The translations under genes were made by a program, and so were the position numbers. DNA of 59,891 nt from a virus, in the IMG/VR virus record IMGVR_UViG_3300006111_000001. One strand, written 5' to 3'. Shown piece after piece: positions 5,493 to 59,891 of the stretch. Below the pieces are notes generated by a model. The model was not told the origin of the DNA, did no database searches, and worked only from the letters and a program-made list of their open reading frames with translations. Numbering within the stretch: the stretch's first letter is position 1; the number at the start of each line of letters is the position of its first letter.

Positions 5493-5566
5493 GGGATGTT
5501 ATGGCCGACGCATCTTTGCGCTCTTGCCTAAGACTTCTTTAACCCGACGCAGCGGTTAAGGTCTAG

Positions 5567-23298: not shown

Positions 23299-23428
23299 AT
23301 GTTCAAATGGGTCACAGATGGGTGCTAAATGATGTAATGATGGGTGCTGATATGGGTAAAAAGCAGTCTTGAAAATTGCTGCGTCGGGTTATCATTAATT
23401 CATAAATCAACCATCATGAGGCCAAGGC

Positions 23429-30800: not shown

Positions 30801-31157
30801 CCGAGCAGCGATGCCTTGGCCGTTGTCGCCGGTGTCGTTAAGCCACCAGCCCCGCCATCATTCTTGACAGTCCCGCTAAATCCCGCACCCGCCGCAGCAG
30901 CAGCTTTGCCCTTTTGTGAATTGCCAGCCTGATCGACATTTGCATTGGCCATAATTGGCGGCGCCGCAGCCGGTGGCACAGCAGGAATAACAGGAGCTTG
31001 AGGTGTCGGAGGTGACGAAAATAACGCGCCCAAAGGTCAATCCTCACGGTTAAGTGAGGCAAAATCTAAACCCGACGCATGGTCATTTGTGTTCTATGGG
31101 TGCGAATTGCACCCTATATGCCCCACGATTGGGGGCGGCAAAGCGGATATTTGGGTG

Positions 31158-31952
31158 CTATCGCTTGCCCCATGCAGAGGCGAGAGGATTGTAATCAACT
31201 TCATGTTTGTTTGGTCGCAACCCAGCGCGCACGCGGTAATCGTCAACCGGACGAAATGCGGCAATGTCAATCCCGCTCATAATCCCATACCGCATGCAGT
31301 CCATTAAATGGTCATTTTCTTTGACCACTTGCCCCTTATCGTCCCGGCGATAAATGCGATACTCGCTTAACGTATTTTGCAGCGTTTTAAATATTTTAAG
31401 CCGCCCCGTCGATAATCGCATCCAGGTCCGATATATGCCCGCTTCCCTCGCATTATTGGCCGTAATCAGCGTTAATCCTAATTGTTGATATTCCCATAAC
31501 AATTGCTCGCCATCCTTTTGTGCTCGACCGCGTGACGCCGGATCAATAACCCCCGGTATCCACTCTCCGCGCGCCTTAATGGCTTGAGCGTGAGTCGATG
31601 GTTCAGCCTGCCCGCGATAATGTTCAGAATAAGCGTAAACCACGTCCGATTCGGTATCATGCGCAAACCACAATCCCGCCGTTCTATTCCATCCCACGTC
31701 CATGGCGTAAAAATGTTTCCAATGAGCGGGTATTTCGAACGGATCACAGGTCACGTCATCTTCCGGCACCGGATAAATGGCGCCCGATCCAAGGGCCGGA
31801 ATGCCTTTGGTGCGCGCGTCCCGTTCATGCGGAGCATAAGACTTAATCATTTCCGCTTGCGCTTCCGCTGATATGTGCGGAACGTCTGCCCAGGAAACGA
31901 ATGTAATGTATTTCGCCATTTCCGTTAGCCGTTTTGCAAAGCAACGGCCCAA
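31158..31952 (-). CDS. terL: Terminase large subunit, C-terminal nuclease portion
   Basis: 264 aa; RNase-H-like terminase nuclease pattern (…HFYAMDVGWNRTAG…, …ENDHLMDCMRYG…). Probable true start is MAKYITF at ~31919, 5 nt after the HNH stop. Confidence 0.7.
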   Translation of the reverse strand: MGRCFAKRLTEMAKYITFVSWADVPHISAEAQAEMIKSYAPHERDARTKGIPALGSGAIYPVPEDDVTCDPFEIPAHWKHFYAMDVGWNRTAGLWFAHDTESDVVYAYSEHYRGQAEPSTHAQAIKARGEWIPGVIDPASRGRAQKDGEQLLWEYQQLGLTLITANNAREAGIYRTWMRLSTGRLKIFKTLQNTLSEYRIYRRDDKGQVVKENDHLMDCMRYGIMSGIDIAAFRPVDDYRVRAGLRPNKHEVDYNPLASAWGKR

Positions 31953-32449
31953 CGCTTGCCGCGAACAATGCGCCCAATTTGCGTTTGTTTTACCCCAAAC
32001 ATTTCACCTAATTGTCGTTGATAAAATTTGCCGCTTTTCCAAAGGCTTAATATCTTACGCACATCATCGACAGACAAGACGGCGTTATGATGCCGCTCAC
32101 CCATCAAACTTGTCCCATGCTTTCGCTTGTCCAAATGATTTGACGACCGAGTATCCCATCTTAGATTTGAATAATGGTTATTCGATGGATCGCCGTCGAT
32201 ATGGCAAATTTCCGCCCCGTCAAACGGCTTTAACCCTATAAAAGCATACGCAACCAATTGATGAGCTTTTTTGTGGATCGACTTACCATCCTTACGCAAA
32301 ATCACCATTGGATAGCCGTCAGATCGAATCCACATCTTCAATATTTTGCCAATGCGCGCGCCGGGAGCAGCCGTAACGCGACGAACAGCGCCCCATTCAC
32401 TAACTTCATAATCCTCAAAACCAGGCACAATCCGCCATTCAGCAATCAT
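31925..32449 (-). CDS. HNH homing endonuclease inserted within terL
   Basis: 174 aa; N-terminal NUMOD4-like (YEVSEWGAVRR) and HNH core (HQLVAYAFIG…ICHIDGDPSNNHYSNLRWDTRSSNH). Start overlaps the TerL-ATPase stop (ATGA). Confidence 0.8.
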   Translation of the reverse strand: MIAEWRIVPGFEDYEVSEWGAVRRVTAAPGARIGKILKMWIRSDGYPMVILRKDGKSIHKKAHQLVAYAFIGLKPFDGAEICHIDGDPSNNHYSNLRWDTRSSNHLDKRKHGTSLMGERHHNAVLSVDDVRKILSLWKSGKFYQRQLGEMFGVKQTQIGRIVRGKRWAVALQNG

Positions 32450-33219
32450 GACTTAACCTCCCCTTCCAAACGCGCACCACCCGGCATGAATGAAAGAACC
32501 ACAGCCGAAAGGCCGCGCAGCGGCGTGAACCCGCATATCACCAACCCGGACGGTTGACCGGGCACGGTCGAAAGCGTTCGAGTTAAGCCTTCCGAGTAAA
32601 TGTCCAATGGCGGTTCTTCATCAAATTGCATAATGTCGATTTTGGCCGCTTGGAACGATTCACGCCCCTGATCATAGGATTTAAACAGCATCCGCGACAC
32701 GCCGCCCGATAAATGCTTGACCGTCACGCTATCCACAGCATCCGGCACGCCCGGCCTTGGTGTCGCCTTGATGATATTGTCAGCCGGTATTAAACCCGTG
32801 CCATGGTCCCCGGTTGGCCCCAAATACGTCACTTGCAAGGATTCGCGGACGGCCTTGGTATCTTCGCCCGCCGCCCACATGGTCACAGGGCGATCAAACT
32901 TGCGCCCAACCCACCAATGGGGATACCAACCAGTTAAATGAAGGGCGCACTCATACGAACACCCAAACGTCTTTCCCGATCGGTTGCCGCCGACCAAAGC
33001 CCGCTCTTGATACGTGGCCCCAGCCGCAAAATGGGCCAAATGCTTAGGGTATAATTCGCGCCGCAATGGCCCGGTATCAGGATAAGCCCGGTAAAGCAGC
33101 GTCTTGCGGTAAATGTCATGCTCTAATTCGATAATGGCCTTAAGGCGCGCATAATCATCCACCGGCAGCGCTGCCAATTGTTCTGGCGTCAGCGCCGCAA
33201 CTTCATCGAACAAAGCCAC
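32446..33219 (-). CDS. terL: Terminase large subunit, N-terminal ATPase portion
   Basis: 257 aa; Walker A (GGNRSGKT), Walker B-like (IDIMQFDEEPP); ends where the HNH ORF begins. Confidence 0.75.
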   Translation of the reverse strand: MALFDEVAALTPEQLAALPVDDYARLKAIIELEHDIYRKTLLYRAYPDTGPLRRELYPKHLAHFAAGATYQERALVGGNRSGKTFGCSYECALHLTGWYPHWWVGRKFDRPVTMWAAGEDTKAVRESLQVTYLGPTGDHGTGLIPADNIIKATPRPGVPDAVDSVTVKHLSGGVSRMLFKSYDQGRESFQAAKIDIMQFDEEPPLDIYSEGLTRTLSTVPGQPSGLVICGFTPLRGLSAVVLSFMPGGARLEGEVKS

Positions 33220-33456: not shown

Positions 33457-33903
33457 TCAATGAACTTTTGACGGGGCAATCTCGCGCGCTTTCTTCATAA
33501 TCATCATAGCATCGGCAACGCGCTCGTTTGGCGCCATTTCCTTAACGGTATGCTCAATCGACCCTTTGTGCTCATGCTCGTGCTTTTGAACGAACAATTT
33601 GAGATACTCGCCCAGCTTTGCCCAAGCGGTCACACGCGCCCCGTGTGACGAACCTTCACCTGTACGCCGAGCCTCGGTCAAAAGCCCGTCCAGCACCAAA
33701 TCTGCCGTGATTTCAGCCGTTTTTATTTGCTTTGACACCAATTGAGCCACAGCCGCCTTCACCTGAGCATTCCCTAGCAAGCGCGGACCATTAACCTCTG
33801 CGCTTTTAGCCGAGTACCCAGCCCGGATAGCCGCTTGTGTCGCGTTTAAATCCTTAACGTATTCAAGAACAAAGCGTTGTTGCTTGGGGTTCAGGTCGCT
33901 CAT
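33457..33903 (-). CDS. terS: Terminase small subunit (Terminase_2/P27 family)
   Basis: 148 aa; N-terminal signature LNPKQQRFVLEYVKDLNATQAAIRAGYSAKSAEVNGPRLLGNAQVKAAV. Confidence 0.75.
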   Translation of the reverse strand: MSDLNPKQQRFVLEYVKDLNATQAAIRAGYSAKSAEVNGPRLLGNAQVKAAVAQLVSKQIKTAEITADLVLDGLLTEARRTGEGSSHGARVTAWAKLGEYLKLFVQKHEHEHKGSIEHTVKEMAPNERVADAMMIMKKAREIAPSKVH

Positions 33904-34261: not shown

Positions 34262-34488
34262 ATTCCAAAAAACTCGCGGGATACAAACGCATCCATACCG
34301 TTTGGCCCCAGAATGTCGCTGCCCGTAACGGGTTCAACAGGCTTTGACGCCAATCCCGCCATTTCCAATATCGCATCCACAAATTCTTCCGCCAGTATAT
34401 CAGACGGAGCAGCGGGTAATTCAACCACTCGTCCGTTATACGAGATGGTCACCGGCCCAATTTGCGGCATGTATTCCGGTTTGCTCAT
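34252..34488 (-). CDS. Hypothetical protein
   Basis: 78 aa ORF. Confidence 0.3.
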   Translation of the reverse strand: MSKPEYMPQIGPVTISYNGRVVELPAAPSDILAEEFVDAILEMAGLASKPVEPVTGSDILGPNGMDAFVSREFFGMWR

Positions 34489-34802
34489 TGGCCATCCATC
34501 AAATTAATGGCGGAAATAATCGTGCCAGTTAAAAAGCACAACCATCCAACGGCATAGAACATCAACGCTATCATGGTCCGCCTCGCGCTTTTAATTTCCA
34601 TCAATGACCGCAATTTCCAAGCCCAAACGCTCTCTTGAAAATTGATTTCAAAAAACAATCCAAGCATGCCCCCAAAAACAAATGGCACCCAAATCCGCCA
34701 GCCAGGCACATAACCGTTGACCACAGCCAGTATCGCGGGCGCAAAAAGCAAAAATTGCGCAAATCCAAATACTTTTAAAGCCGTTTGCCGTTTCATGGTC
34801 AT
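34485..34802 (-). CDS. Small membrane protein
   Basis: 105 aa with 3 hydrophobic helices. Confidence 0.4.
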   Translation of the reverse strand: MTMKRQTALKVFGFAQFLLFAPAILAVVNGYVPGWRIWVPFVFGGMLGLFFEINFQESVWAWKLRSLMEIKSARRTMIALMFYAVGWLCFLTGTIISAINLMDGQ

Positions 34803-34845
34803 GTATTTTCACCCGACGCAGCCAGCACCGACAAGCAAAAAACCA

Positions 34846-35406
34846 TTACCCAAACCTCCGCCCGACAAATTCCGCATGCCGCTTAAATGACCGCTCCCGC
34901 TTCTTATCCAAAGGAAAATAAGCAATGGCAGCGTGATCCGCGCAATATGGCTTATTCGATAACTTTGCGTCTTGGCAGTAACGCCAAACATTATCTTGCG
35001 GCCCCGGATTGCCATAGACCCAGCAGCACCCGCACGGTTCTTTAACACCCTCACCGGCCACAACATCACCCCACGCCGGATCAATCGGCAGTGATTTAGA
35101 TACCAAGCGCGGCTTCATTGGTTCAGTGACCAGCCTGGGCATCCGCAGCCCTTTAAACCCCATCACGCGCTTTGCATGTGCCTTGGCCTTTGGCTTTTGT
35201 TCGACCGGCTCCTGATCCGCCCCCTTGGCATTTGACAGCTTAAGCCCCAACCGCCGCAATTGCCCCATAACTGCATTGCGCGTGATATGCCATCCAGCCG
35301 CCTCCGAAGCAATTAAAGCAATCTGGCTGGACGATGCCCCAGGAGTTTTTTCCCAAGCCTCTCGAATGTATTTGCGCGAGTCCGAAATCTGAATGGCGTT
35401 TCTCAT
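34846..35406 (-). CDS. GcrA-like cell-cycle regulator homolog
   Basis: 186 aa; N-terminal …SSSQIALIASEAAGWHITRNAVMGQLRRLGLKL matches the GcrA N-terminal DNA-binding pattern; C-terminal …CGCCWVYGNPGPQDNVWRYCQDAKLSNKPYCADHAAIAY matches the GcrA C-terminal Cys/His pattern. Confidence 0.7.
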   Translation of the reverse strand: MRNAIQISDSRKYIREAWEKTPGASSSQIALIASEAAGWHITRNAVMGQLRRLGLKLSNAKGADQEPVEQKPKAKAHAKRVMGFKGLRMPRLVTEPMKPRLVSKSLPIDPAWGDVVAGEGVKEPCGCCWVYGNPGPQDNVWRYCQDAKLSNKPYCADHAAIAYFPLDKKRERSFKRHAEFVGRRFG

Positions 35407-35575
35407 TTTGTTTCCCCAAAAAATCCCGGTCGCGCCGGTTTTTCACCGCGATAATCCCGCAGAATGTCCAACCAATCCAAAACCGTAATCCATGCCGACG
35501 CGCCGATGATAAGCACCCCCATCAGCCAAAGCGGGCTTGTGACAAACACCCACCACCAAAATGATAGGGTTTCCA

Positions 35576-36130
35576 TCACGCCTCCGCCCTAAACATGGTC
35601 GCAACCTTGGCCCTGATGCGCTCGACCGATACCATGCGCTCGTCCCTACTCATTTCAACCGGCGCTGGATCACGCGGTGCCAAAAGCTTTTGAACCGCGC
35701 GCAATTCCGCTTGCTTGTCCTTCATTAGCTTCTCGCACCGGCTCCAAATGACCCCAACAACCGGAATAAACGTATCCGCCGACCGTATTTGCTCCCCGAT
35801 CACTTGACGCAAAATCCGCTCAGGAACAGGCGCCAAAATCTTGACGTACAATTCCCCGTCAAAATTGGTCAGTGCCTTTGATCGAACCAGCCAAGTCATC
35901 ATTTCGCCCGCAAAAGCCTTTCCGCAAGGTTGCAACGCATCAAACAAATCCCGGCTGTACCGGCTCAAGATCAAGTGTTGGTCCGCTGAAATGCCCACCG
36001 CTTGCCCCCGGCGCTCCACCATCCCCACCAACGGCGCTAGCGATGCTGGCAAGCGCGGCATCAAGGCTGGATTGCCGTTTTCCCTTTGATCCGCGCGCTC
36101 TAAAGCACCCTTCGATGAATGAGATTGCAT
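35576..36130 (-). CDS. Hypothetical protein
   Basis: 184 aa track ORF overlapping the upstream gene by ~190 nt; real start is probably an internal Met. Confidence 0.3.
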   Translation of the reverse strand: MQSHSSKGALERADQRENGNPALMPRLPASLAPLVGMVERRGQAVGISADQHLILSRYSRDLFDALQPCGKAFAGEMMTWLVRSKALTNFDGELYVKILAPVPERILRQVIGEQIRSADTFIPVVGVIWSRCEKLMKDKQAELRAVQKLLAPRDPAPVEMSRDERMVSVERIRAKVATMFRAEA

Positions 36131-36770
36131 CTATCGCCCCTTCCCGTTTTGCCGAACCCAAAACCTCAATCAAAGCCGCATCCCCATGAATGCCTCGCCA
36201 TCGGCCAAGCACTGACCGGGCTTGAGGCTCTTTGACGCCCTTGGAAATTAAAAATTTTAGACCATCAGTAAAAACCAAAGTGGCCAAATCGGGCGGCTTG
36301 CCGCCAGTTACGCTAGTAACTGAATCCTCTATATTGGATATAGGATTAGGATAGCTTTCGTGGGGGTTAGCCACTTGGTTATCTTTGGGTTTGCTTTGGG
36401 TTTCATCTAGCAAACCCACTGGGTTATTTTTGGGTTTAGCTTTAGGCCTGCCACCGCCCGCCCCATTGGTTCGCGCCCGCTCTTGCCGTAGGATAGCAGC
36501 GGCCCATTCTTTCTCTAATCTCTTTTGACGCCACTTGCCGTCAGTCAAATCAAAAAACCTGACCAACACAGGACGTAGCTTTGTAAATCGCGCCAATGGC
36601 ATCCGGCATATCCGCGCCATGGTTTCCGCGTCATCATCTAACGGCTCGCCATTGTTGCGCCATGTCGCATAAAGAATAAAATGATACGCTCCAAACAACT
36701 CAGCATCGCAATGCAGAGTATCGCCCAAAAGCGCATCCACAAACATTGGCATAACCGGCGCCTGGCTCAT
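35940..36770 (-). CDS. DUF1376 (YdaU-like) replication-associated protein
   Basis: 276 aa; N-terminus MPMFVDALLGDTLHCDAELFGAYHFILYATWRNNGEPLDDD… follows the DUF1376 pattern; Gly/Lys-rich linker and C-terminal domain. Confidence 0.55.
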   Translation of the reverse strand: MSQAPVMPMFVDALLGDTLHCDAELFGAYHFILYATWRNNGEPLDDDAETMARICRMPLARFTKLRPVLVRFFDLTDGKWRQKRLEKEWAAAILRQERARTNGAGGGRPKAKPKNNPVGLLDETQSKPKDNQVANPHESYPNPISNIEDSVTSVTGGKPPDLATLVFTDGLKFLISKGVKEPQARSVLGRWRGIHGDAALIEVLGSAKREGAIDAISFIEGCFRARGSKGKRQSSLDAALASIASAVGGDGGAPGASGGHFSGPTLDLEPVQPGFV

Positions 36771-36771
36771 A

Positions 36772-37032
36772 TCAACCCGCCTTCCGGTTACGCTTGCGCG
36801 TGCCGCGCAGGTGCATAATTGACGTGTGATCCCGATTTAATAATCGCCCCATTTGTGCGCACGACAACCCCAGCGGGGCCATCGCCATTACAGCAGCCCG
36901 ACGAGCCGCAACCAATTCACGAAACCGAGCCTCGCCTTTAATTTCATCAATGGTAAACCCATGGGATTTAGCCACTTCTGCAATGACATACCGGCCACGC
37001 TCAAAACTGTTAATGTGCTCAGGAATAATCAT
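36772..37032 (-). CDS. DnaA domain IV-like HTH protein
   Basis: 86 aa; …AARRAAVMAMAPLGLSCAQMGRLLNRDHTSIMHLRG… resembles the DnaA C-terminal DNA-binding signature (…RDHTTV…). Confidence 0.55.
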   Translation of the reverse strand: MIIPEHINSFERGRYVIAEVAKSHGFTIDEIKGEARFRELVAARRAAVMAMAPLGLSCAQMGRLLNRDHTSIMHLRGTRKRNRKAG

Positions 37033-37907
37033 GCGGCATCCCCAAATAAATTTGATTGCCGATCAACGGAATCCAAATACCGGCACGCCTGGCGCCAATA
37101 AGCCTCTTTCAGTTCCGTGCCAATAAACTTTCGGCCTAGCTTGAGAGACATATACCCCTCAGATCCAATCCCCATAAATGGGCTCAAAACCACATCCCCG
37201 GCATTGCTCCACATAATCAAGGCCCGCTCAATCACATCAAGCTGCAATGGACACAAATGGCGCTCATCATTATGTTCCCGCGCCATGTGGACGTTCAAAA
37301 CATTGGATTGGTTGACAGTCATCCATACCGGGCTGGCCCATTCCTGCCATTGTTCAACGGGGAAATCTTCCGGCGTATGAGTGATAGGATCAGCATTCTC
37401 GCCCGGTTTCACAAACGTCAAAAGGTAATCGGGCATCCCGCCGCGACTTTTGGCGCTGTCTTTTTTTAGCTGCTTATAAAGCAAGCCGACATGCTTTGTA
37501 CGGGTCATTTCCGTGACAGGGCATTTCCAGATCGTGCGCCGTGAATGCAAAATCCATCCTTCCGCCTCATGAGCACGAATAATTTGCCCGCTGAAATCCT
37601 TGATCCCAACCGCGCCATCTTTCCATTTAGTCATCGGGAGATCGGAGCAATGAACGGCAGTCAGCCGCCCAGGTTTGGTTACACGGAATTTTTCGCGCAC
37701 CAAAAATTGATAATGGGCTGCAAATTCTTCATCAGTAGAATTGCCCATATCGGCGGCACTGGTCGAATAAACAAACAGCGATCCGAAAGGCGGCGAATAG
37801 ACCGAAAAATCAATGCTTTCGCTCGGTAACTGGCTTATGACGCTAACGCAGTCTCCGTTGAACGCCGCAAACCGCTCGCCGTGGTATTCGTTGTCGCAGT
37901 CAACCAT
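37029..37907 (-). CDS. DNA methyltransferase, N4/N6 class (beta permutation; SPPF motif)
   Basis: 292 aa; catalytic motif IV as …DFSVYSPPFG… precedes an AdoMet motif I-like …DVVLSPFMGIGSEG…; SPPF/SPPY is commonest in N4-cytosine enzymes but does not fix specificity. Confidence 0.7.
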   Translation of the reverse strand: MVDCDNEYHGERFAAFNGDCVSVISQLPSESIDFSVYSPPFGSLFVYSTSAADMGNSTDEEFAAHYQFLVREKFRVTKPGRLTAVHCSDLPMTKWKDGAVGIKDFSGQIIRAHEAEGWILHSRRTIWKCPVTEMTRTKHVGLLYKQLKKDSAKSRGGMPDYLLTFVKPGENADPITHTPEDFPVEQWQEWASPVWMTVNQSNVLNVHMAREHNDERHLCPLQLDVIERALIMWSNAGDVVLSPFMGIGSEGYMSLKLGRKFIGTELKEAYWRQACRYLDSVDRQSNLFGDAA

Positions 37908-39313
37908 GATGGTAGTCTCCCTTTGTGTTTAGGTTCGTAAGCAATCTTTGTTTGTTGAGTAGTGGTAGCAGACCGAAGCATGGCGGCGCGCATGGCGGAT
38001 TTCATCTTGCTGTGATCCATCGCCTTGCGGTCAATCACGCGTCCGATCTCGGATTCACCCTCTGCAACGATCAAGTGAACATTGACAGGTTTAGTCTGTC
38101 CAAACCGCCAGCAACGGCGGACGGCCTGATACCATGTCTCATAGGAATAGCCGCGACCGACAAACGCCATATCAGCGCAATGCGACCAATCTAAGCCATA
38201 TCCAAGCATCGACGGCTTGCCGATCAGCACCTTGATATCGCCCGAAGCAAAAGCCTCTAGTCGGCTTTCCTTTTCATCAATGGATTGTGCCCCCCGAACC
38301 TCAACCGCAAAAGGCAAAGCCTTTTTAACGCTGTCGGCTTCATAATCGGTATCAACCCAAATGATCCACGGTTTATCTTGAGTGACGAAGCCGCCCAAAA
38401 CATCCGTTCTAGCGGCAGCGGTTTGACGTTTCACGTCATGCAGATTGGTCGCTGATAGGGCCAGATGGGCAAATAGATCATTGCCATCGGTTTTAATTTC
38501 GGTTTGGGCCGCCTGATGCCGGATAATTTCCATCGGCGGCAGATCAAACCGCGAGTCAGTTTCCATGTCCCCCAGATCAGCCGGACGTTCAGCCATCCGG
38601 CACCAAGATGCCATCCAATCCCAAAATGAAATCTCAGCATGACCCTTAAGCCGCCACTCTTGGGAAGCGGTTGAAGTGTCATTGATAAAGAACCGGGATA
38701 GCATTTCATTTGCGGCCATGATTTCAAGAAATTCAGCATAATTGCCAATTTCCATGTGATCATTCGGGGCCGGTGTCGCGGTCGCTGTCAGCTTAAACCG
38801 ATGACCCTTGAACGCATCAATCAACGCCCGCGTGGTTTTATTTGTAAATGATTTAAGAATTGACGCCTCATCAAGTGACACGGCACCAAAAGCATCAGGA
38901 TCAATCTTATCCAAGCGGTCATAATTGCAAATGTTAATTCCTGGTCCAACATCTGACATTTCGCGGATTACGCGGGCCTCATAACCATACTTATCCGCCC
39001 GGCGCTTGGTTTGTTGCGCGACAGCTAACGGCGTCAGCAATAAACCGCGCCCGTTAGTCGCCTTCATGGCGTGGTACAAATACTCAAGCTGGATCTCGGT
39101 TTTGCCCATGCCAGTGTCTAAAAACAACCCAGCCGCGCCGACGCGCAAATTATGGTCAACGCATTCGCGCTGAAACGGAAACAAATGATCCGCTAACAAC
39201 GCATCGCCCTTTAAGCCGCGCATAACCGCACGAGGCTGCTTGGACGCAAGAAAAGATTGATAATCACCGTTCATTTGGTGTCCCAGCATAAAATTTTGTG
39301 TCAACCGGCTCAC
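37835..39313 (-). CDS. SNF2-like superfamily-2 helicase/ATPase
   Basis: 492 aa; Walker A (LDTGMGKT), DEAH-like motif II (VSLDEAS), motif III (LTATATP), and C-terminal …QAVRRCWRFGQTKPVNVHLIVAEGESE typical of SNF2 motif VI. Confidence 0.7.
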   Translation of the reverse strand: MSRLTQNFMLGHQMNGDYQSFLASKQPRAVMRGLKGDALLADHLFPFQRECVDHNLRVGAAGLFLDTGMGKTEIQLEYLYHAMKATNGRGLLLTPLAVAQQTKRRADKYGYEARVIREMSDVGPGINICNYDRLDKIDPDAFGAVSLDEASILKSFTNKTTRALIDAFKGHRFKLTATATPAPNDHMEIGNYAEFLEIMAANEMLSRFFINDTSTASQEWRLKGHAEISFWDWMASWCRMAERPADLGDMETDSRFDLPPMEIIRHQAAQTEIKTDGNDLFAHLALSATNLHDVKRQTAAARTDVLGGFVTQDKPWIIWVDTDYEADSVKKALPFAVEVRGAQSIDEKESRLEAFASGDIKVLIGKPSMLGYGLDWSHCADMAFVGRGYSYETWYQAVRRCWRFGQTKPVNVHLIVAEGESEIGRVIDRKAMDHSKMKSAMRAAMLRSATTTQQTKIAYEPKHKGRLPSWLTATTNTTASGLRRSTETALAS

Positions 39314-39466
39314 CCTCGCCTATCCATTCCAGGCACTCGCTCCAATATTCATGGTGCGAAAGCCCATTGTTTCGACCCGTGCGCGCCCATTTGCCGGTGC
39401 CTATGGCCCAATCCACTTGAGACTTGGGAAAGTGGCGAAAATACCGGATTGCGGGCGCCGCACTCA

Positions 39467-40654
39467 TCATGCCGCCGCCCTCACATCCATATATGCACCT
39501 ATGAACTCTGCCGCTGCTTGCGGGACAATCGCGTTACCGAAGCCGCGCAACATACCCACTCGGTTGGGTAGCCCATCAACCAAGAGACAAATTCCGGGTT
39601 TAACTGGCCTGGCTTTTCCGTCGATCCCGACAATCCGTTCTGCATCGGCCCAATAATTGCCGCTTGAACGTTCAACGCTTGGCTGTTGCGTTCGAATTGT
39701 GACGGCCCCGCGTTGTTTTTGGCGTCGTTCGTTGTCGGCGTCGACCAATAAACCATAGACGGAAGCGTCATGCTCCCCGATCCGTATTTCTGGTTCGGTC
39801 CGCCCTTGTCGCCGTCTGTCGCTTTGGGCGTCGACCAAAGCGCCGGCACATGATCCTGCAAATTGACCTGGTGCCCCGATTGTATCCGGGCTGCCGCTTT
39901 GTCCGGGTCCGTATAGTCCCCGCCGCCCTTCTCGCGCACTTGCGGCGTCGCCCAAAGCGCCGTCGTCTGGCGCAACAACAAGCCCCCTTGTAAATTCGGT
40001 TGAAGCTGCGCGCCCGTCCCGTCGTTCGCCCGAGGCGTCGGCCAAAGTGCTTGGATCGTATTCTGTAGCGTCACTGTTGCTTTTGAGCCGTCCGGCCGGA
40101 CCCCTGTCGGCGTCGTACCGGGAGGATTGCTTTGCCCGCCGCTCGGAGTTGTGGGCGTGGGCCACAAAGAACAATCGGTCGCGGCGGTGCGGCGCGCCGA
40201 CGGCACAAGCCGGAATAATCGCCGCCCCAACGGCGTAATCAAGTCCTTCAAGATCATTGGCGACATTGTCGAGCCATGATTGACCAACCGCTGCCGCAAC
40301 CTGTTCGCCAAACAGGTTTGAAGGTCGACACTCGCCGACGAGCCGAAACAATTCCGGCCAGAGGTGACGCTTGTCGTCGACCCCTTGCCGCTTTCCCGCG
40401 ACACTGAAGGGCTGGCATGGTGGCGAGCCGGTCCAGACGGGACGGTCGACCGGCCATCCGGCAAGTCTAAGAGCCTCGGCCCATCCCCCGATTCCGGCGA
40501 AGAAATGGACTTGGTCGAATCCGACAAGGTCGGCGCCGGTGACGTCGCAAATAGATCGAATGTCGACGAATCCATCTGGAATCAATCCTTGTTTGATTAG
40601 CTCGCGCAACCAAGCAGCGGCAAACGGATCGTTTTCGTTGTAATAAGCCGTCAT
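39467..40654 (-). CDS. DNA (cytosine-5) methyltransferase; conserved motifs split between two reading frames
   Basis: 395-aa frame carries motif I (FFAGIGG), motif IV (GSPPCQPFSVAG), motif VI (FGEQV), motif VIII-like (RRDRLFFV) and C-terminal motif X-like (GNAIVPQAAAEFI). The overlapping frame 39499..40575 carries five LW(P/A/S)TP repeats and a motif IX-like LMGYPTEW. Confidence 0.65.
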   Translation of the reverse strand: MTAYYNENDPFAAAWLRELIKQGLIPDGFVDIRSICDVTGADLVGFDQVHFFAGIGGWAEALRLAGWPVDRPVWTGSPPCQPFSVAGKRQGVDDKRHLWPELFRLVGECRPSNLFGEQVAAAVGQSWLDNVANDLEGLDYAVGAAIIPACAVGAPHRRDRLFFVAHAHNSERRAKQSSRYDADRGPAGRLKSNSDATEYDPSTLADASGERRDGRAASTEFTRGLVVAPDDGALGDAASAREGRRGLYGPGQSGSPDTIGAPGQFAGSCAGALVDAQSDRRRQGRTEPEIRIGEHDASVYGLLVDADNERRQKQRGAVTIRTQQPSVERSSGNYWADAERIVGIDGKARPVKPGICLLVDGLPNRVGMLRGFGNAIVPQAAAEFIGAYMDVRAAA

Positions 40655-41082
40655 GCCGCCACCGCATCCAATTCAAATGCTTCGATGGTTACTTTGACCT
40701 TGGGCTTATCCGCCCAATGCCGCCGCACGGTCAGCCAAATGATTTGCTTGTCATCTTGGTACACAACGCCGTTAAGAGCATCGCAAACCGCCTTGGCGAC
40801 ATTATCCAGATCGACCCGATGAATCGGTGCAAACGTCCCTTTTAAAGCCGCATTGCGTTGACGTGCTGGCCAAGATTTAGGAGGCACGACAAACACATTG
40901 ATGGTCGCCGCTATGGCATTGCCAACCGGATCATCTTTGAACACGGCGCGCGCCGCCCATTGAACGGCTTGCTCATATTCAACCGTCTTGGCGGGAGTAT
41001 AAACATGACCCTGTTTGGTCATGCGCGGACGCTGTTTGCCGACCGGCTCCCCGCCAATTTCAAATGTCGCCAAGTGACGCAT
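40651..41082 (-). CDS. rusA: RusA-family Holliday junction resolvase
   Basis: 143 aa; …EIGGEPVGKQRPRMTKQGHVYTP… and overall RusA pattern. Confidence 0.8.
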   Translation of the reverse strand: MRHLATFEIGGEPVGKQRPRMTKQGHVYTPAKTVEYEQAVQWAARAVFKDDPVGNAIAATINVFVVPPKSWPARQRNAALKGTFAPIHRVDLDNVAKAVCDALNGVVYQDDKQIIWLTVRRHWADKPKVKVTIEAFELDAVAA

Positions 41083-41450
41083 CAGGCCGCAACACGCTTT
41101 AATGCGGCTTCACCCAACGGAGTGGTGGCAAGCATGCCCAAAGCGTTCAAATACAATTCCAGCTTTGCTTCTTCTTCATCGCGCTGCGCTTTGTCTTTTT
41201 TGCGAAGCGCAATGACCTTGCGGATGATTTTGGTTTCAAACCCGTGAGCAGCCGCCTCCGCGTACACATCCTTAATGTCCCCAGCCAGCTCTGCCTTCTC
41301 GGTTTCAAGGCGCTCAATCCGCTCCACTATTGACTGCAATTGTCCGTTTGAAATTGTCATTCTCAATCTCCAAAAAGGCCAGGGCCAAAGCCCCGGCAAG
41401 TTGAGGGAGGTACGCCCGTGTGGGCCTGTTGAGCAGGTAAAAACCCGCAA
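41082..41450 (-). CDS. gapR: GapR-like (DUF2312) nucleoid-associated protein
   Basis: 122 aa; …QLQSIVERIERLETEKAELAGDIKDVYAEAAAHGFETKIIRKVIALRKKDKAQRDEEEAKLELYLNALGM closely follows the Caulobacter GapR/DUF2312 sequence. Confidence 0.8.
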   Translation of the reverse strand: MRVFTCSTGPHGRTSLNLPGLWPWPFWRLRMTISNGQLQSIVERIERLETEKAELAGDIKDVYAEAAAHGFETKIIRKVIALRKKDKAQRDEEEAKLELYLNALGMLATTPLGEAALKRVAA

Positions 41451-41460
41451 TTCTTAAAAC

Positions 41461-42063
41461 TCAATCGCCAGTTAAATCGGAAAATACAGGTCCATCACTT
41501 TGTGACCCGTTCGAATGCACCAATGGCCGATCCGATTCAGCGCGGATGCCGTCAAAATCAGCCCGCGCTTGTAAAATGCGATCCGCCAATTGCGCATGTT
41601 CTTTCTGTAAATCATCCAATTCCCCTCGGATTCGTAGCATTGCCGTGTCGCCACAAGCTGGTTCAAACACAAACGCCACAAACCGATACCCAAATAAGCC
41701 GCTTAACCGCGAAATATGCTTTCCGCTTGGGTACTTGCCCTCAAGCCATTCCCGAACGGTGCGCTCATCACTATCAACCGCTCTCGCCACCTCTTTCACG
41801 GTATTGCGCGGATAGGCTTGGCGCAGCCAGAACGCCACGCGCGATCCCATTTCAGGAACGGCATCAACGCACGGCATTTTTTTGGTAACTTTCACTGTGT
41901 ATTTGCTCATCGTTCCCTCGCATTTTAATGATGCAAGGACGGGAGCCAGATTGATGATTGAACGGGAATTGGAGCGTGACGACCTTGGCCGGAATGACAC
42001 GCTCGACAATTGGGTAAAACTTGATATGGCGACAGGACTGGCCTTGATCGTCATTGGCTGCAA
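41461..42063 (-). CDS. Hypothetical early protein (possible regulator)
   Basis: 200-aa track ORF; likely starts at the internal MSKYTVKVTKKMPCVD…; contains a …DERTVREWLEG… HTH-like stretch. Confidence 0.35.
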   Translation of the reverse strand: MQPMTIKASPVAISSFTQLSSVSFRPRSSRSNSRSIINLAPVLASLKCEGTMSKYTVKVTKKMPCVDAVPEMGSRVAFWLRQAYPRNTVKEVARAVDSDERTVREWLEGKYPSGKHISRLSGLFGYRFVAFVFEPACGDTAMLRIRGELDDLQKEHAQLADRILQARADFDGIRAESDRPLVHSNGSQSDGPVFSDLTGD

Positions 42064-42125: not shown

Positions 42126-42374
42126 CTAGCCAGCATTACGCACCTCATCATTTTGAGATTGCGGCAATGGCACCAAAAAAATGTCTGGCCTTAATTCGCA
42201 CCGGGAAATACCGGTTGCCCTTTCAATGGCCAACGCATTTTCGGCTGAAATCTTGGTTGAACGATTAACCCATGCCCAAATGGACGGCTGTTTGACCCCA
42301 ATGGCGCGGGCCAAGGCGTTTTGTCCACCGGCAATCTCTAATGCGCGTTGCAGCGCGGTTATAGGCGTGTTCAT
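42126..42374 (-). CDS. Cro-like HTH regulator
   Basis: Divergent from the CI-like gene. Track ORF begins at TTG 42410; the ATG at 42374 (MNTPITALQRALEIAGGQNALARAIGVKQPSIWAWVNRS…) is the more likely start. Confidence 0.55.
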   Translation of the reverse strand: MNTPITALQRALEIAGGQNALARAIGVKQPSIWAWVNRSTKISAENALAIERATGISRCELRPDIFLVPLPQSQNDEVRNAG

Positions 42375-42457
42375 AGGTTTGTCTATATAGGCAAACCAAA
42401 GCCGCGTCAATAGTGGATGCTATTGGAAAAATGAGTTTTTTTAATTAATGTGCGGAC
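42375..42457. promoter_or_regulatory. Divergent cI/cro-like switch region with operator-like palindromes
   Basis: Near-perfect palindrome GGTTTGtcTATATAggCAAACC (42375..42398) abutting the cro-like ATG; inverted repeat CAATAG-N6-CTATTG (42408..42425); candidate -35/-10 hexamers on both strands. Confidence 0.45.
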
Positions 42458-43120
42458 ATGGAAACTTTAGGTAAACGAGTGCGCGCCCGTCGCGCTGATT
42501 TAAAATTGTCTCAAGCGGAACTTGCCAGCCGCGTGGGCATATCTCAGCCGTCTTTATCAGCCATTGAAAATGACGAGACTCAAGGCACCACCAAAATATT
42601 AAAGCTGGCAGAAGTATTGGAATGTGACCCCAATTGGCTTTTGATGGGCAATAAACTAAAGTTTAGCGTCCCCAACAAACTTACAACTTATAAAAATAAT
42701 CCTGTTGCAAACGAATCAGTTTTTACTACCATCAATATGGGCAAAAGAGACTTACCTATTAGAGGTCTGGCTCAAGGGGGTGATGGGGTGCTAACATTTG
42801 ACCAAGACGCAATAGATTATACTTTTCGTCCATCTAATTTAGTCGGCATAGATGAAGCGTTTGCGCTTTATGTTACCGGCGACTCCATGGGCGAAGTCTT
42901 GATCCCAGGCACTTTGTTATTGGTTCACCCCAAACAAGAACCAAAAATTATGGATTTTGTCGTTATTGAAAAAATTGACCGATCCGTAATCGTTAAACGA
43001 TTGGTTCGCAGATCGGCCAATAGCGTCACCTTGCGCGAATACGACCCGCCCAATGATTTTGTGCTTTCTCGCAGCGAAATTCGAATGATGTTGCGGGTTT
43101 GCGGGACGGCCATGGAATGA
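42458..43120 (+). CDS. CI-like repressor (HTH_XRE plus S24 LexA-like peptidase domain)
   Basis: 220 aa; N-terminal …LKLSQAELASRVGISQPSLSAIENDET… HTH; C-terminal …FALYVTGDSMGEVLIPGTLLLVHP…VIVKRL… with Ser and Lys catalytic-dyad context. Confidence 0.8.
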   Translation: METLGKRVRARRADLKLSQAELASRVGISQPSLSAIENDETQGTTKILKLAEVLECDPNWLLMGNKLKFSVPNKLTTYKNNPVANESVFTTINMGKRDLPIRGLAQGGDGVLTFDQDAIDYTFRPSNLVGIDEAFALYVTGDSMGEVLIPGTLLLVHPKQEPKIMDFVVIEKIDRSVIVKRLVRRSANSVTLREYDPPNDFVLSRSEIRMMLRVCGTAME

Positions 43121-44179: not shown

Positions 44180-44740
44180 ATGCTATTCACAATCCCTTTC
44201 CGTTCATGGACTGGCAAAGCCGCATTTGAGGTCGAGATCGCCGACGATGTTGAACCGCGCTTTCAAATGCGCGCTGCCTTGTCGGTTGTGATCGGCAAAG
44301 CCAAAGAAAAGGGCGAACGTGCCAATCTCAGCCGTGCCGATCTCAGCGGTGCCGATCTCAGCGGTGCCTATCTCAGCGGTGCCGATCTCAGCGGTGCCTA
44401 TCTCAGCGGTGCCAATCTCAGCGGTGCCGATCTCAGCGGTGCCGATCTCAGCGGTGCCTATCTCAGCGGTGCCGATCTCAGCGGTGCCTATCTCAGCCGT
44501 GCTAAAGGTGCATTTTCGCTTGGAACGCCGGATGGTTGGTCGGCTGTTGCTTGGCTGCGCGACGGTTTCTTATCGATCCGCGTCGGTTGCCGAGATAAGC
44601 GGTTAGATGAAGCCCGCGCATATTGGGCCAATAAAAATGACCGGTGCGAAGTTATGGCGGCGCTGGATTACGCTGAAATAATTGCGCGCCTTCGTGGTTG
44701 GGCCATTGAAGCACCGGCTGAACAAGTGGCAGCGGAGTAA
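44180..44740 (+). CDS. Pentapeptide-repeat protein
   Basis: 186 aa; central run of ~12 consecutive pentapeptides A(D/N/Y)LSG ([25 protein letters not shown]…) flanked by unique N- and C-terminal segments. Confidence 0.75.
44327..44503 (+). repeat. Tandem 15-bp repeat (~11.8 copies) encoding the pentapeptide repeats
   Basis: Near-identical units ctcagcggtgccgat / ctcagcggtgcctat / ctcagcggtgccaat in head-to-tail array. Confidence 0.9.
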
Positions 44741-50023: not shown

Positions 50024-50341
50024 ATGAACTTCCCGCGCCCAATCCCAGCCAACAGGCAAGATGAAATTGAAATTCATCGGCCTTGGGCACGGCTGCCAAA
50101 TTGGCCGCGATTGCTACCAGAACTTTTGGCGGCTGCCTATGTCGGCGGTGTCTCGATCGGTACTTTCCGAACGGAGGTCGAACAAGGCATTTGGCCCCCG
50201 CCAATCCGGCGCGGACGGCGCATATTTTGGGATTTGGGCGACCTTGATAGGGCAGTTGACCGGCTAAAGGGCATTGTATCTGATACTCTTCCTGATCAAC
50301 CTTCGGGCCTCGGGGACATAAATTGGGACAAATCCGCTTGA
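50024..50341 (+). CDS. Excisionase / AlpA-like HTH protein
   Basis: 105 aa; …LLAAAYVGGVSIGTFRTEVEQGIWPPPIRRGRRIFWDLGDLDRAVD… resembles Xis/AlpA DNA-binding domains; immediately upstream of integrase. Confidence 0.5.
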   Translation: MNFPRPIPANRQDEIEIHRPWARLPNWPRLLPELLAAAYVGGVSIGTFRTEVEQGIWPPPIRRGRRIFWDLGDLDRAVDRLKGIVSDTLPDQPSGLGDINWDKSA

Positions 50342-51375
50342 GCCTCAGCGTGCCACGGCTCCATATCGTCGGGGACCGCTTTTATTGGCGCCCCACGGCC
50401 CCTATCCGTGCTTTGGGGTTTTCTTACGAGGCTTTGGGCAAAGACCCCATGAAAGCCGCTGCAAGGGCCAGGGAGCTTAATGAACAGGTCGAGCGGGCCA
50501 AACTAGGGTTGGATGCCAGGACCAAGCGCGGCGACACGGTGGCAGCCCTGATCGACGCCTATCAGTCCTGCCCCCGGTATAAGAGCCGGGCGGAAACCAC
50601 CCGAAAGGGCTATGACCATTTCCTAAAACACATCCGCGCGCTTGCCGGGCATGTCATTGTGGCGACCATTGACCGGCCCGGCATGTTGCAGACCTATGAG
50701 AAGCTAATCGCCGCCAGGGGCCTTTATACCGCCAATGCGTATATGAAGGTCTGGCAGATATTGCTTAAGCACGCCTATGACCTCGGATGGCGCAAAGATA
50801 ACCCCGCCGCCGGGCTTGGGCTTCAAACGCCGCCGCCGCGAGAGCAAGTCTGGACGGTCGATCAAATCCTTGCATTTTGTGATGCCGCCGTGGAAATGGG
50901 CAGGCCGTCCATGCGTCTGGCGATGCTATTGGCCTATGACCTTGGGCAACGCCCTGGCGACTATATCAAGCTGACTTGGACCACTTACACCGGGTCCGGG
51001 TTTATGATTAAGCAGTCCAAGACCAAAACCCGCGTCAATGCGCCGTTCGAAAACCCGTTTCTTTGGGCTGAAATCGACGCCATGCCGCGCAAACACTCGC
51101 ATGTCTTGATTTGTGAGGGGACCAAAGCCCCCTATAAGGCTGATTATTTCCGGCACCTATGCACCAAGATCAGGCGCGCGGCCAAACTGCCGGAACAGCT
51201 TCAATTCCGCGATCTGCGCCGGACAGCCGCCACGGAAATTGGCAATGCCGGGGCAACAGATGATCAGTTACGGGCGCTCCAAGGCTGGAAAACCCGGAAT
51301 CAGGCGGCGACTTATGTGGTGGTATCGTCAGCCGGTGCCGAAGGCGCTCAAGCGAAACGGAGGGCGAACAGGTAA
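50323..51375 (+). CDS. int: Tyrosine integrase
   Basis: 350 aa; N-terminal SAM-like and C-terminal catalytic patterns (…GQRPGDYIKLTW…, …FRDLRRTAATEIGNAG…LQGWKTRNQAATYV…). Confidence 0.8.
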   Translation: MGQIRLSLSVPRLHIVGDRFYWRPTAPIRALGFSYEALGKDPMKAAARARELNEQVERAKLGLDARTKRGDTVAALIDAYQSCPRYKSRAETTRKGYDHFLKHIRALAGHVIVATIDRPGMLQTYEKLIAARGLYTANAYMKVWQILLKHAYDLGWRKDNPAAGLGLQTPPPREQVWTVDQILAFCDAAVEMGRPSMRLAMLLAYDLGQRPGDYIKLTWTTYTGSGFMIKQSKTKTRVNAPFENPFLWAEIDAMPRKHSHVLICEGTKAPYKADYFRHLCTKIRRAAKLPEQLQFRDLRRTAATEIGNAGATDDQLRALQGWKTRNQAATYVVVSSAGAEGAQAKRRANR

Positions 51376-59771: not shown

Positions 59772-59891
59772 TCAGATTGATATAGGTTGACGTGGAAACG
59801 GTCGGAGTCGCCGTCAACGTATCGCCGCTTTTCAAAAACAAATATGGATTTCCATAATTGTCCAATGGCAAACCCTGCCAAGTTGCAGAAT
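59772..59891. repeat. Terminal direct repeat, right copy (identical to 1..120)
   Basis: Exact 120-nt match to window start; implies a unit genome of ~59771 bp. Confidence 0.9.

Follow-up and report, generated by a model that had tools for sequence, protein, structure and literature searches.

[quoted passage not shown] The window, meaning the whole stretch of 59,891 nucleotides that was analyzed, holds a complete, circularly assembled phage genome of about 59.8 kb whose termini overlap by 120 nt. The phage encodes both an integrase and a repressor/Cro switch, has a T7-type portal, and is probably temperate. Its host is most likely an alphaproteobacterium, because GapR/DUF2312 homologues, found in 155 cultured-phage records, are almost all from phages with alphaproteobacterial hosts, and because GANTC is the most avoided pentamer class of its genome. 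The remaining contigs with this phage are 99.99-100% identical, and no sequence-diverged relative for comparing motif conservation was found among them; comparative signal is therefore absent. With moderate confidence, we conclude that the three genes encode long-diverged phage-lineage paralogues, most likely employed by the phage to replicate and transcribe its own genome.

Layout of the early operon

The region 34846-41450 lies within the early operon, as the original prediction stated: the GapR-, GcrA- and DnaA-domain-IV-like genes, all present on the minus strand where they had been placed, share one tightly packed operon whose co-directional genes run from a Cro/YdaS-like HTH gene (42126-42410) down to the small terminase gene (33457-33903), with ATGA start/stop overlaps at several junctions. 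Opposite the Cro/YdaS-like gene, the operon's first (Pfam YdaS_toxin 74 bits, HTH_3, P22_Cro), lies a divergent plus-strand HTH repressor gene (42458-43120), whose translation reads as S24 (LexA/CI) type, with DicA/LexA/UmuD-type matches that are all weak and below cut-off. Next in the operon is an ORF of at most 200 aa (41461-42063) with weak HTH signals only, for which profile searches gave no family above cut-off. The GapR-like gene follows, and here the predicted 122-aa ORF (41082-41450) proved to be an upstream over-extension: the gene is 41082-41360 and encodes 92 aa, because homology begins only at residue 32 of the longer ORF, and because a GGAG ribosome-binding site and a terminator-like GC-rich hairpin with a T run (41378-41397, minus strand, a consensus match only) precede the corrected ATG.

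Downstream, on the same strand, are genes for a RusA Holliday-junction resolvase (40651-41082; PF05866, 115 bits), a C5-cytosine DNA methyltransferase interrupted by a long low-complexity insertion (39467-40654; PF00145, 78 bits; phrog_363, E 2e-77), an SF2 (DEAD/SNF2-like) helicase (37835-39313; phrog_62, E 7e-54; weak Helicase_C and DEAD matches), and a beta-class N4/N6 DNA methyltransferase (37029-37907; PF01555, 63.9 bits; best PDB match 2zie) whose ORF overlaps the 3' end of the helicase gene by 73 nt. The stand-alone DnaA-domain-IV-like gene (36772-37032; 86 aa) has an ATGA overlap with this methyltransferase gene upstream and a 1-nt gap to the gene downstream, which encodes a DUF1376 protein that may initiate or organise replication (35940-36770; PF07120, 48 bits; phrog_9327 'primosomal protein') and carries KPK-rich linker repeats (36371-36437). 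A hydrophobic 58-aa ORF (35403-35579), matching no family, has an ATGA overlap with the GcrA-like gene (34846-35406; 186 aa), beyond which lie a multi-pass membrane ORF of 105 aa (34485-34802), three small ORFs and the small terminase gene.

Family membership and divergence

Profile searches placed all three ORFs above their Pfam gathering scores, so that the predicted kinship with GcrA, GapR and DnaA domain IV withstood formal search. The GcrA-like protein aligns with almost the whole PF07750 profile (positions 11-153 of 155; 44.9 bits, cut-off 26.9, E 2e-11), and its best solved-structure sequence match is Caulobacter GcrA (7ye1, E 8e-9). The AlphaFold model has a pLDDT of 95-97 over residues 11-50, and GcrA entries are its top three Foldseek matches in the PDB. 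The architecture is that of Caulobacter GcrA (5yix, 7ye1; PMC5887438, PMC4647560): three helices form the N-terminal DNA-binding domain, a disordered linker follows, and the C-terminal part is a CCCH zinc domain that interacts with sigma-70 and has a basic tail. All four zinc ligands are conserved (C127, C144, C155 and H158), with a spacing of C-X16-C-X10-C-X2-H in the phage protein versus C-X14-C-X9-C-X2-H in Caulobacter GcrA, and so are most hydrophobic sigma contacts, W129, W141, Y143, Y154 and Y163 aligning to W120, F130, F132, Y142 and Y151 of GcrA. The DNA-binding residues T42, R43, N44, G48 and R52 are retained, with R33, N34, G38 and R42 of Caulobacter GcrA conserved. In contrast, M47, Q49 and R51 replace I37, K39 and H41 (I37M, K39Q, H41R), I37 being a methyl-pocket residue, and a 5-residue insertion precedes the recognition helix; the roles of the contact residues are those established for GcrA (PMC5887438). 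Because three DNA- or methyl-contact positions are altered, the site of the GcrA-like protein is probably not methylated GANTC. Two further features count against the explanation that we favor: the near-invariant N-terminal Trp (W3 equivalent) is absent, and Val occupies the position of G129, where the substitution G129D in Caulobacter GcrA disrupts sigma binding (PMC5887438).

The GapR-like protein likewise exceeds its cut-off (PF10073, 103.9 bits, cut-off 22.6, E 3.3e-30; best solved-structure sequence match Caulobacter GapR 6jyk, E 1e-23). It is the same size as Caulobacter GapR (6jyk, 6ozx; PMC12185513) and matches the whole 76-residue DNA-binding region, differing by substitutions at the basic positions K20Q, K47A and R60L (Caulobacter numbering). 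The predicted DnaA C-terminal signature of the 86-aa protein is also borne out (PF08299, 40.3 bits, cut-off 31.5, E 3.2e-10; phrog_27829), the best solved-structure sequence match being DnaA domain IV of M. tuberculosis (3pvp, E 1.4e-4). Residues R36, D68, H69, T70 and H74 correspond to R399, D433, H434, T435 and H439 of E. coli DnaA, and nine further stand-alone homologues from viruses share this base-contact signature. The protein lacks the final domain IV helix and the P423 equivalent, which counts against our explanation, and its single-sequence structure model was of too low quality for use.

None of the three reaches NCBI orthologue-level cut-offs, hence our description of them as diverged phage-lineage paralogues. 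The GcrA-like protein scores 49.6 bits against an NCBIfam equivalog cut-off of 280; the GapR-like protein exceeds the cut-off of the PRK13694 subfamily (108.4 versus 94) but falls under that of the Caulobacter equivalog (103 versus 140). Since both miss the equivalog cut-offs, conservation of function is an extrapolation.

Each of the three gene types is already recorded in phages. A canonical GcrA query recovered 31 cultured-phage records, of which 26 belong to Caulobacter phages, and GcrA-like genes were known from phiCbK-type phages (PMC3556154), whose gp222 likewise belongs to PF07750, keeps the zinc-finger C-terminal domain and has a putative role in host or transcription manipulation. 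Those are 200-kb-class lytic siphophages (205-229 kb records), whereas the present phage is of 60 kb, probably temperate, with a T7-type portal; by tblastn, its GcrA-like protein matched no cultured phage, and among 1.8 billion representatives the closest relative shares 41% identity with it. DnaA-domain-only genes were known from HTVC010P-type pelagiphages (PMC8477408), podophages infecting an alphaproteobacterium, where a replication role was proposed. Like the present gene, these genes (phrog_27829) are PF08299-only and lie in the early region; in the present phage the neighboring genes encode a methyltransferase and the DUF1376 protein, and tblastn at E 1e-3 found no similarity of its product to cultured phages.

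Among uncultured viruses, GcrA-like proteins are encoded by at least 118 IMG/VR stretches. The 293 ORFs scanned beside 78 of these genes (up to two per side) include DnaB (9), DUF1376 (7), MT-A70 (6), Bac_DnaA_C (5), RusA (5), C5 methylase (3) and Cro-like genes; the list of matched families contains no terminase. All three gene types occur together in at least three further viral contigs (L264, L327 and L329), always among replication genes.

Methylation, repeated motifs and the host cell cycle

This leaves a question of target: do the three proteins act on the host or on the phage? The original prediction favored the host, and these putative effectors may reprogram its cell cycle; the same hypothesis was published for phiCbK gp222 in 2012 (PMC3556154) and has since been put forward again for more recent Caulobacter phages (PMC13459779). 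The phage methyltransferases would supply marks read by the GcrA-like protein, which would re-activate S-phase host genes, while the DnaA-IV-like and GapR-like proteins would act on host replication initiation. The intact sigma-70-binding domain is consistent with such a role, as is the over-initiation caused in Caulobacter by ectopic HdaB, a stand-alone domain IV protein (PMC7049699); that phenotype, however, is now ascribed to the switching on of a gene transfer agent (PMC9632790).

The homologies, the early operon and the methyltransferases of this interpretation stand; the coupling to methylation and the binding-site signals do not. The two methyltransferases are real, but neither is CcrM-like or confined to alphaproteobacterial phages. 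One is a cytosine enzyme. The other shares with CcrM, the GANTC N6-adenine methyltransferase (6pbd), the beta-class N6_N4 family and an AdoMet-binding motif that aligns over about 50 residues, but it lacks the CcrM C-terminal domain, scores 46 bits against an equivalog cut-off of 830, and has SPPF rather than DPPY as motif IV. Its relatives occur in 308 phage records from many phyla (including Actinobacteria, Bacteroidota and Cyanobacteria) and adjoin helicases in Mycobacterium, Flavobacterium, Pseudomonas and cyanobacterial phages. We therefore include the methyltransferases in our explanation as a separate, broadly distributed protective module.

Nor are the expected motifs enriched. GANTC, the site of GcrA and CcrM, occurs about half as often as expected (97 versus 187 +/- 12.5) and is not concentrated at promoters, only 7 of the 97 sites being intergenic; the 10 copies of the extended site YGAKTCG lie almost all in coding DNA, and CtrA boxes show no enrichment in the phage genome. 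When up to one mismatch is allowed, the genome has 9 DnaA boxes versus 12.4 expected, with no perfect box and no cluster near the replication genes; this lack of clusters favors host takeover in one respect, since it leaves host boxes as the most obvious target of the DnaA-IV-like protein. Given the altered DNA- and methyl-contact positions and the GcrA-like genes of viral contigs that travel with phage replication genes, we consider host takeover unlikely. Equally, no binding sites for the three proteins were identified, which counts against our own explanation, as do the depletion of GANTC and the lack of DnaA-box enrichment.

A repeated motif raises another candidate function. The 10-mer TGCGTCGGGT occurs in five exact copies plus one ending in GGGG, against about 0.1 expected; all six lie in intergenic gaps, and the five minus-strand copies precede late-gene starts. 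The first copy, within the motif GCTGCGTCGGGT at 34811-34822 (minus strand), lies in the 43-nt gap directly 3' of the GcrA-like gene, and its link to the three proteins is hypothetical. The GcrA-like protein might be a late-gene activator that docks on sigma-70 and recognizes TGCGTCGGGT, possibly cytosine-methylated by a phage methyltransferase. In five late intergenic gaps the motif is closely followed by -10-like hexamers, its core TGCGTCG equals the GcrA site YGAKTCG (PMC5887438) save for C in place of the methylated A, and the GcrA-like gene holds the last early position before the membrane ORF and terminase genes. However, a random 10-mer would nearly match YGAKTCG with a chance of about 0.035, so that the resemblance is suggestive only; -35 elements are inconsistent, one copy is inverted, the first is merely 12 nt from the next start codon, and in other viral contigs the ORFs scanned on either side of GcrA-like genes yielded no terminase family. 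We regard this activator role as improbable.

A probable role in phage replication and transcription

From the observed homologies, residue conservation, operon layout and recurrence in viral contigs we infer every protein activity that follows. A replication role for the 86-aa protein cannot be assumed, because HdaB/GafY, the known alphaproteobacterial protein made of DnaA domain IV alone, has been reinterpreted as an activator of transcription (PMC9632790, PMC11150451). Both proteins are short, consist only of a DnaA domain-IV-like HTH, and are associated with this bacterial class and with phage-derived elements (PMC7049699, PMC9632790, PMC11150451). The phage protein could contact sigma-70 domains 3-4 and turn on phage genes instead of being a replication factor: GafY, the sole experimentally studied protein of this kind in the literature searched, controls a domesticated phage and switches on gene transfer agents (PMC9632790, PMC11150451, PMC9638019), and a DnaA-IV gene directly adjoins the GcrA-like gene in several viral contigs (L260, L281 and L327). 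We judge this very improbable: the protein is nearer by sequence to true DnaA than to GafY, BLASTP matching DnaA domain IV at 36.6 and 33.5 bits and a GafY-like protein recovered in L221 not at all at E<10; it keeps RDHTS where GafY has RDRTT, has the Arg equivalent to R399 that HdaB lacks, and is encoded in an operon with no ORF like the partner GafZ/DUF6456.

Its role most likely lies in starting or controlling replication, because it is co-translated with the DUF1376 replication protein. As a bare DnaA DNA-binding domain, it would bind DnaA-box-like DNA but not open an origin, since the base-contact residues are kept and the AAA+ and helicase-loading domains are absent; it would act as a phage adaptor or as a competitor at host DnaA sites. 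The three paralogues, scattered among ordinary replication, recombination and DNA-modification genes, would serve the phage itself. The GcrA-family protein is expected to ride the host RNA polymerase holoenzyme through its sigma-70 region-2-binding domain and would steer it to promoters with its own site, probably other than methylated GANTC. The 92-aa GapR-like protein is expected to form a GapR clamp on overtwisted, AT-rich DNA, where, as the phage genome replicates rapidly, it would assist the host's gyrase and topoisomerase IV in front of replication forks and RNA polymerase.

Family assignment of the three early proteins

We compared the three minus-strand proteins of the early operon with profile models and with solved structures. 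The GapR-like protein scores 103.9 bits against the GapR_DNA-bd profile (PF10073, cut-off 22.6), passes the PRK13694 GapR subfamily model (108.4 bits, cut-off 94) and matches Caulobacter GapR (6jyk) with an E-value of 1e-23; the NF052541 GapR equivalog is not reached (103.2 bits, cut-off 140). The predicted family thus holds, and the predicted extent of the gene (41082–41450) does not. The 122-aa ORF starting at the TTG at 41450 reads through a terminator-like hairpin with a T run (41378–41397, minus strand, between a 200-aa ORF and the GapR-like gene), GapR homology begins at residue 32, and a GGAG ribosome-binding site lies ahead of the ATG at 41360. Together these place the GapR-like gene at 41082–41360, encoding 92 aa, a normal GapR size. 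The hairpin, lying inside the early operon, could be an antitermination control point.

The GcrA assignment (34846–35406, 186 aa) was borne out: the protein gives 44.9 bits with the GcrA profile (PF07750, gathering cut-off 26.9), aligning residues 14–171 with profile positions 11–153 of 155, and a sequence search of solved structures returned Caulobacter GcrA (7ye1, E = 8e-9). The NF050816 GcrA equivalog is not reached (49.6 bits, cut-off 280). Falling below their equivalog cut-offs, the GcrA-like and GapR-like proteins are, as judged by sequence, not orthologues of the cellular proteins. When 1.84 billion representatives were scanned exhaustively with HMMER, 753 GcrA-family relatives passed E≤1e-3, the closest 41% identical, and tblastn of the phage protein against cultured phages gave no match.

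To read the residues of the GcrA-like protein we used the roles established for Caulobacter GcrA (PMC5887438). The CCCH zinc ligands of the phage protein (C127, C144, C155 and H158) are invariant across a 30-sequence alignment, five of the six sigma-70 region-2 hot-spot contacts are kept in conservative form, and W129, W141, Y143, Y154 and Y163 align with GcrA W120, F130, F132, Y142 and Y151, while the position equivalent to GcrA G129 is occupied by Val. The C-terminal tail is basic, and a 5-residue insertion is common to other diverged members. The DNA-binding domain keeps T42, R43, N44, G48 and R52 but differs from that of Caulobacter GcrA by I37M (methyl pocket), K39Q and H41R, and the N-terminal Trp equivalent to W3 is missing. 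An AlphaFold model computed on the alignment has a three-helix N-domain (pLDDT 95–97), a disordered linker and a C-domain of moderate confidence. The best three PDB fold matches of this model are all GcrA entries, with the weak E-values expected for two tiny domains on a flexible linker. The best-supported reading is that this protein would act as a sigma-70 region-2 cofactor with changed DNA specificity; its altered methyl-pocket residues could show how DNA-methylation readers change specificity.

The DnaA C-terminal-domain assignment (36772–37032, 86 aa) was likewise upheld, by 40.3 bits with Bac_DnaA_C (PF08299, cut-off 31.5) and a match to M. tuberculosis DnaA domain IV (3pvp, E = 1.4e-4). 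The DnaA models TIGR00362 and NF001154 give 26–28 bits against cut-offs of 344–410, with only their last ~60 positions matched, and DnaA domains I–III (the helicase-interaction domain and the AAA+ ATPase) are absent. The protein aligns to E. coli DnaA residues 385–443 and ends directly after the recognition helix, with the DnaA-box contacts R399, D433, H434, T435 and H439 of E. coli present as R36, D68, H69, T70 and H74; it differs from E. coli domain IV in having Ala at the P423 equivalent and in lacking the last helix. On sequence grounds, it is a bare DnaA domain IV. An AlphaFold single-sequence model was set aside for its low pLDDT of 59, and tblastn against cultured phages gave no match. 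The gene start overlaps the stop of the preceding methyltransferase gene (ATGA), and its own stop lies one nucleotide ahead of the start of a DUF1376 gene (35940–36770), whose product is annotated in PHROGs as primosomal or replication protein; this spacing points to co-expression with the replication module.

HdaB is the stand-alone domain-IV protein known from alphaproteobacteria. First described as a replication regulator (PMC7049699), it was later renamed GafY and shown to activate gene transfer agents by contacting sigma-70 in partnership with GafZ (PMC9632790, PMC11150451, PMC9638019). We sought GafY in genome and metagenome contigs with the published gafY qPCR primers (17- and 19-mers). 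The primer matches were mostly in unrelated DNA and never included both primers at one locus; GafY-like genes at two metagenome loci, L195 and L221, were recovered by chance. The L221 locus, reached through the RKIEDL-encoding primer sequence, holds a gafY-gafZ-like operon (L221:2861–3960, minus strand), in which a 122-aa DnaA-IV-like gene is followed by a 257-aa ORF with an overlapping start. In BLASTP, the 86-aa phage protein matched DnaA domain IV at 36.6 and 33.5 bits, but the L221 GafY-like protein gave no match at E<10. It reads RDHTS where GafY reads RDRTT, and neither a GafZ-like ORF nor a DUF6456 Pfam match is present in the early operon. We therefore reject membership of a GafYZ pair and regard the phage protein as a DnaA-type rather than a GafY-type head, although a role in transcription is possible despite that head.

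Methyltransferases and binding-site signals

The two DNA methyltransferases of the original prediction were confirmed as a C5-cytosine enzyme (PF00145; 39467–40654, minus strand) and a beta-class N6_N4 enzyme (PF01555; 37029–37907, minus strand). The N6_N4 enzyme is ruled out as a CcrM by its score with the CcrM equivalog (46.3 bits, cut-off 830) and by its motif IV, which is SPPF, compared with DPPY in CcrM. An SPPF motif IV is typical of N4-cytosine enzymes such as M.PvuII. The closest solved relative is TTHA0409 (2zie). In 308 phage records, relatives of this enzyme either adjoin helicases or form fusions with them. Mycobacterium, Flavobacterium, Arthrobacter, Pseudomonas and cyanobacterial phages dominate this set, and the enzyme is therefore a general phage module rather than part of an alphaproteobacterial cell-cycle circuit. 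In the window, its ORF and the 3′ end of the helicase gene share 73 nt read in different frames (37835–37907), and the PHROG profiles phrog_16 and phrog_62 record methyltransferase-helicase fusions in other phages. Metagenome gene callers pick a shorter methyltransferase start that would remove motif IV. The C5 methyltransferase gene carries three diverged 33-nt direct repeats (39716–40045) within a long low-complexity insertion (~residues 180–330), and is overlapped by a 358-aa ORF in another frame (39499–40575).

The original prediction had the phage possibly coupling the action of the trio to its own methylation, and named methylation-motif enrichment in phage promoters as a check. Over the whole window GANTC occurs 97 times, compared with 186.7±12.5 in dinucleotide shuffles, an approximately two-fold depletion. 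No other of the 16 XYNY'X' palindromes is as depleted, and among all pentamers GAGTC/GACTC has the lowest observed/expected ratio (0.48). Intergenic sites account for 7 of the 97, and the extended GcrA site YGAKTCG (n = 10) lies nearly always in coding DNA. This avoidance is the opposite of promoter enrichment; it is consistent with GANTC-specific methylation or restriction in the host. Because neither methyltransferase is CcrM-like, and because GANTC and YGAKTCG are depleted and situated in coding DNA, we reject the coupling to CcrM-type methylation.

DnaA boxes, the other signal named, are not enriched: 9 occur at ≤1 mismatch against 12.4 expected, none is perfect, and none cluster near the replication genes. 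The sole weak cluster of two-mismatch boxes is inside an HNH endonuclease gene, and nine other viral DnaA-IV loci have no box clusters. DnaA-box clusters are thus rejected as the phage origin or target. CtrA boxes are absent from the window (1.3 expected). Within the DUF1376 gene, three 22-nt direct repeats (36371–36437, with the 11-nt sub-repeat CTTTGGGTTTG) encode a KPK-rich linker. Their position recalls the origin iterons inside lambda O, and the protein repeat alone may be their source.

A repeated intergenic motif and the late genes

The 10-mer TGCGTCGGGT occurs as five exact copies plus one ending in GGGG, against ~0.1 expected, always in intergenic gaps. Minus-strand copies stand at the heads of late-gene clusters (34811–34822, 31070–31081, 23280–23291, 14311–14322 and 5542–5553), an inverted copy lies on the plus strand at 23378–23389, and each is immediately followed by an A/T-rich -10-like hexamer. 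The copies could be late promoters or regulatory elements of another kind. A 43-nt gap immediately follows the GcrA-like gene and contains the first of them. The motif core, TGCGTCG, departs from the GcrA site YGAKTCG solely in having C for the methylated A, a near-match whose chance is ~0.035. These observations are a weak hint that the GcrA-like protein might be a late-gene activator reading a phage-private, possibly cytosine-methylated site, with the mark perhaps added by a cytosine methyltransferase of the phage itself. The proposal as a whole, in which a GcrA-like switch acts at five late TGCGTCGGGT promoters, a phage cytosine methyltransferase is the writer and the trio is a conserved early toolkit, we consider improbable.

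For GcrA-like genes generally, a 'Q-like late activator' role is unsupported by synteny, since in 78 further viral loci with GcrA-like genes, each taken with at most 8 kb of flanking DNA per side, the neighbors are replication genes. The Pfam families that flank them are DUF1376, DnaB, Bac_DnaA_C, RusA, MT-A70, C5 methylase, primases and Cro-like proteins; no terminase is among the families listed. Stand-alone DnaA-IV ORFs occur in nine of the 78 loci (91–247 aa, all with the DH(T/S/A)T signature core) and GapR genes in five. The whole trio is found together in L264, L327 and L329, and L306 has a methyltransferase followed by DnaA-IV, the same arrangement as in the window. This recurrence, together with the flanking families, indicates that the window holds a typical early-module gene set for such phages.

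Phage setting and biological meaning

Each class of gene has a wider record. Among cultured phages, 155 records carry GapR/DUF2312 homologues, nearly all of them from alphaproteobacterial hosts; a 2025 paper calls its own phage GapR example the first (PMC12185513). A canonical GcrA query returned 31 cultured-phage records, 26 of them Caulobacter phages, and the phiCbK GcrA homologue has been under discussion since 2012 (PMC3556154, PMC9437464). One degenerate pattern retrieved at least 118 GcrA-like genes from IMG/VR. Genes for the DnaA DNA-binding domain only reportedly occur in most HTVC010P-type pelagiphages (PMC8477408) and form their own PHROG family. GapR- or GcrA-family genes are also carried by Microcystis- or Synechococcus-labelled phages (GapR query H4, H5, H28 and H29; GcrA query H67 and H68), which raises the question of whether the true hosts are co-cultured alphaproteobacteria; apart from these records, the two families are confined to phages of Alphaproteobacteria. 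In the literature we found no description of the trio as such. The gene set of the window is not very unusual, each class having already been catalogued in phages of Alphaproteobacteria.

The window corresponds to metagenome contig Ga0208618_1000037 (JGI 3300025435), and JGI, ENA and Logan assemblies together contain the same phage on at least 21 contigs; the five compared are 99.99–100% identical, and the collections searched contain no diverged relative. A 120-nt direct terminal repeat (1–120 = 59772–59891) indicates a circularly assembled, complete genome of ~59.8 kb. Megablast of the early operon against cultured phages found no match, and a word-indexed protein search with the phage proteins returned only those proteins themselves. 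The phage is probably temperate, as judged from an HTH repressor gene (42458–43120, plus strand; S24 (LexA/CI)-type by reading of its translation), a divergent Cro/YdaS-like gene (42126–42410, minus strand), a tyrosine integrase (50323–51375), a recombination module and a T7-type portal. A single co-directional minus-strand array runs from the Cro-like gene through the trio region to the terminase and structural genes. The large terminase is in two minus-strand ORFs, Terminase_6N (32446–33219) and Terminase_6C (31158–31952). Between them, overlapping each, is an HNH/NUMOD4 homing-endonuclease gene (31925–32449), a layout that an inserted free-standing endonuclease or an intron-like element could explain. 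The accessory region encodes a pentapeptide-repeat protein (44180–44740), a serine resolvase/invertase (53405–54031) and a family-61 glycosyltransferase (55662–56834), candidate lysogenic-conversion or moron genes.

The original prediction thus stands as an observation, and in part as an interpretation: methylation coupling and the DnaA-box and GANTC signals fall away. Most likely, the trio are phage-lineage accessory early proteins that would serve mainly the DNA transactions of the phage itself. Easing topological stress would fall to the GapR-like protein, and the GcrA-like protein would ride host sigma-70 and favor a particular group of promoters. The DnaA head would either bind box-like DNA in partnership with the DUF1376 initiator or act as a competitor of host DnaA. 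Reprogramming of the host cell cycle by the trio, as first proposed, is a live alternative to a role in phage DNA transactions; the literature searched contains no experiments on the phage versions of the three proteins.

The present finding is mainly one further diverged instance of gene classes catalogued in phages of Alphaproteobacteria, with the motif TGCGTCGGGT as one testable lead. If the improbable switch were true, the phage would have a private epigenetic reader/writer pair on a GcrA scaffold, and the GcrA-like, DnaA-domain-only and GapR-like trio would be a conserved early toolkit of alphaproteobacterial phages. If the proposed activities hold, a compact, probably temperate phage would carry an RNA-polymerase cofactor, a topology sensor and a DnaA-box binder of its own, in a genome far easier to dissect than those of the phiCbK phages of the 200-kb class, in which the GcrA homologue first drew notice.
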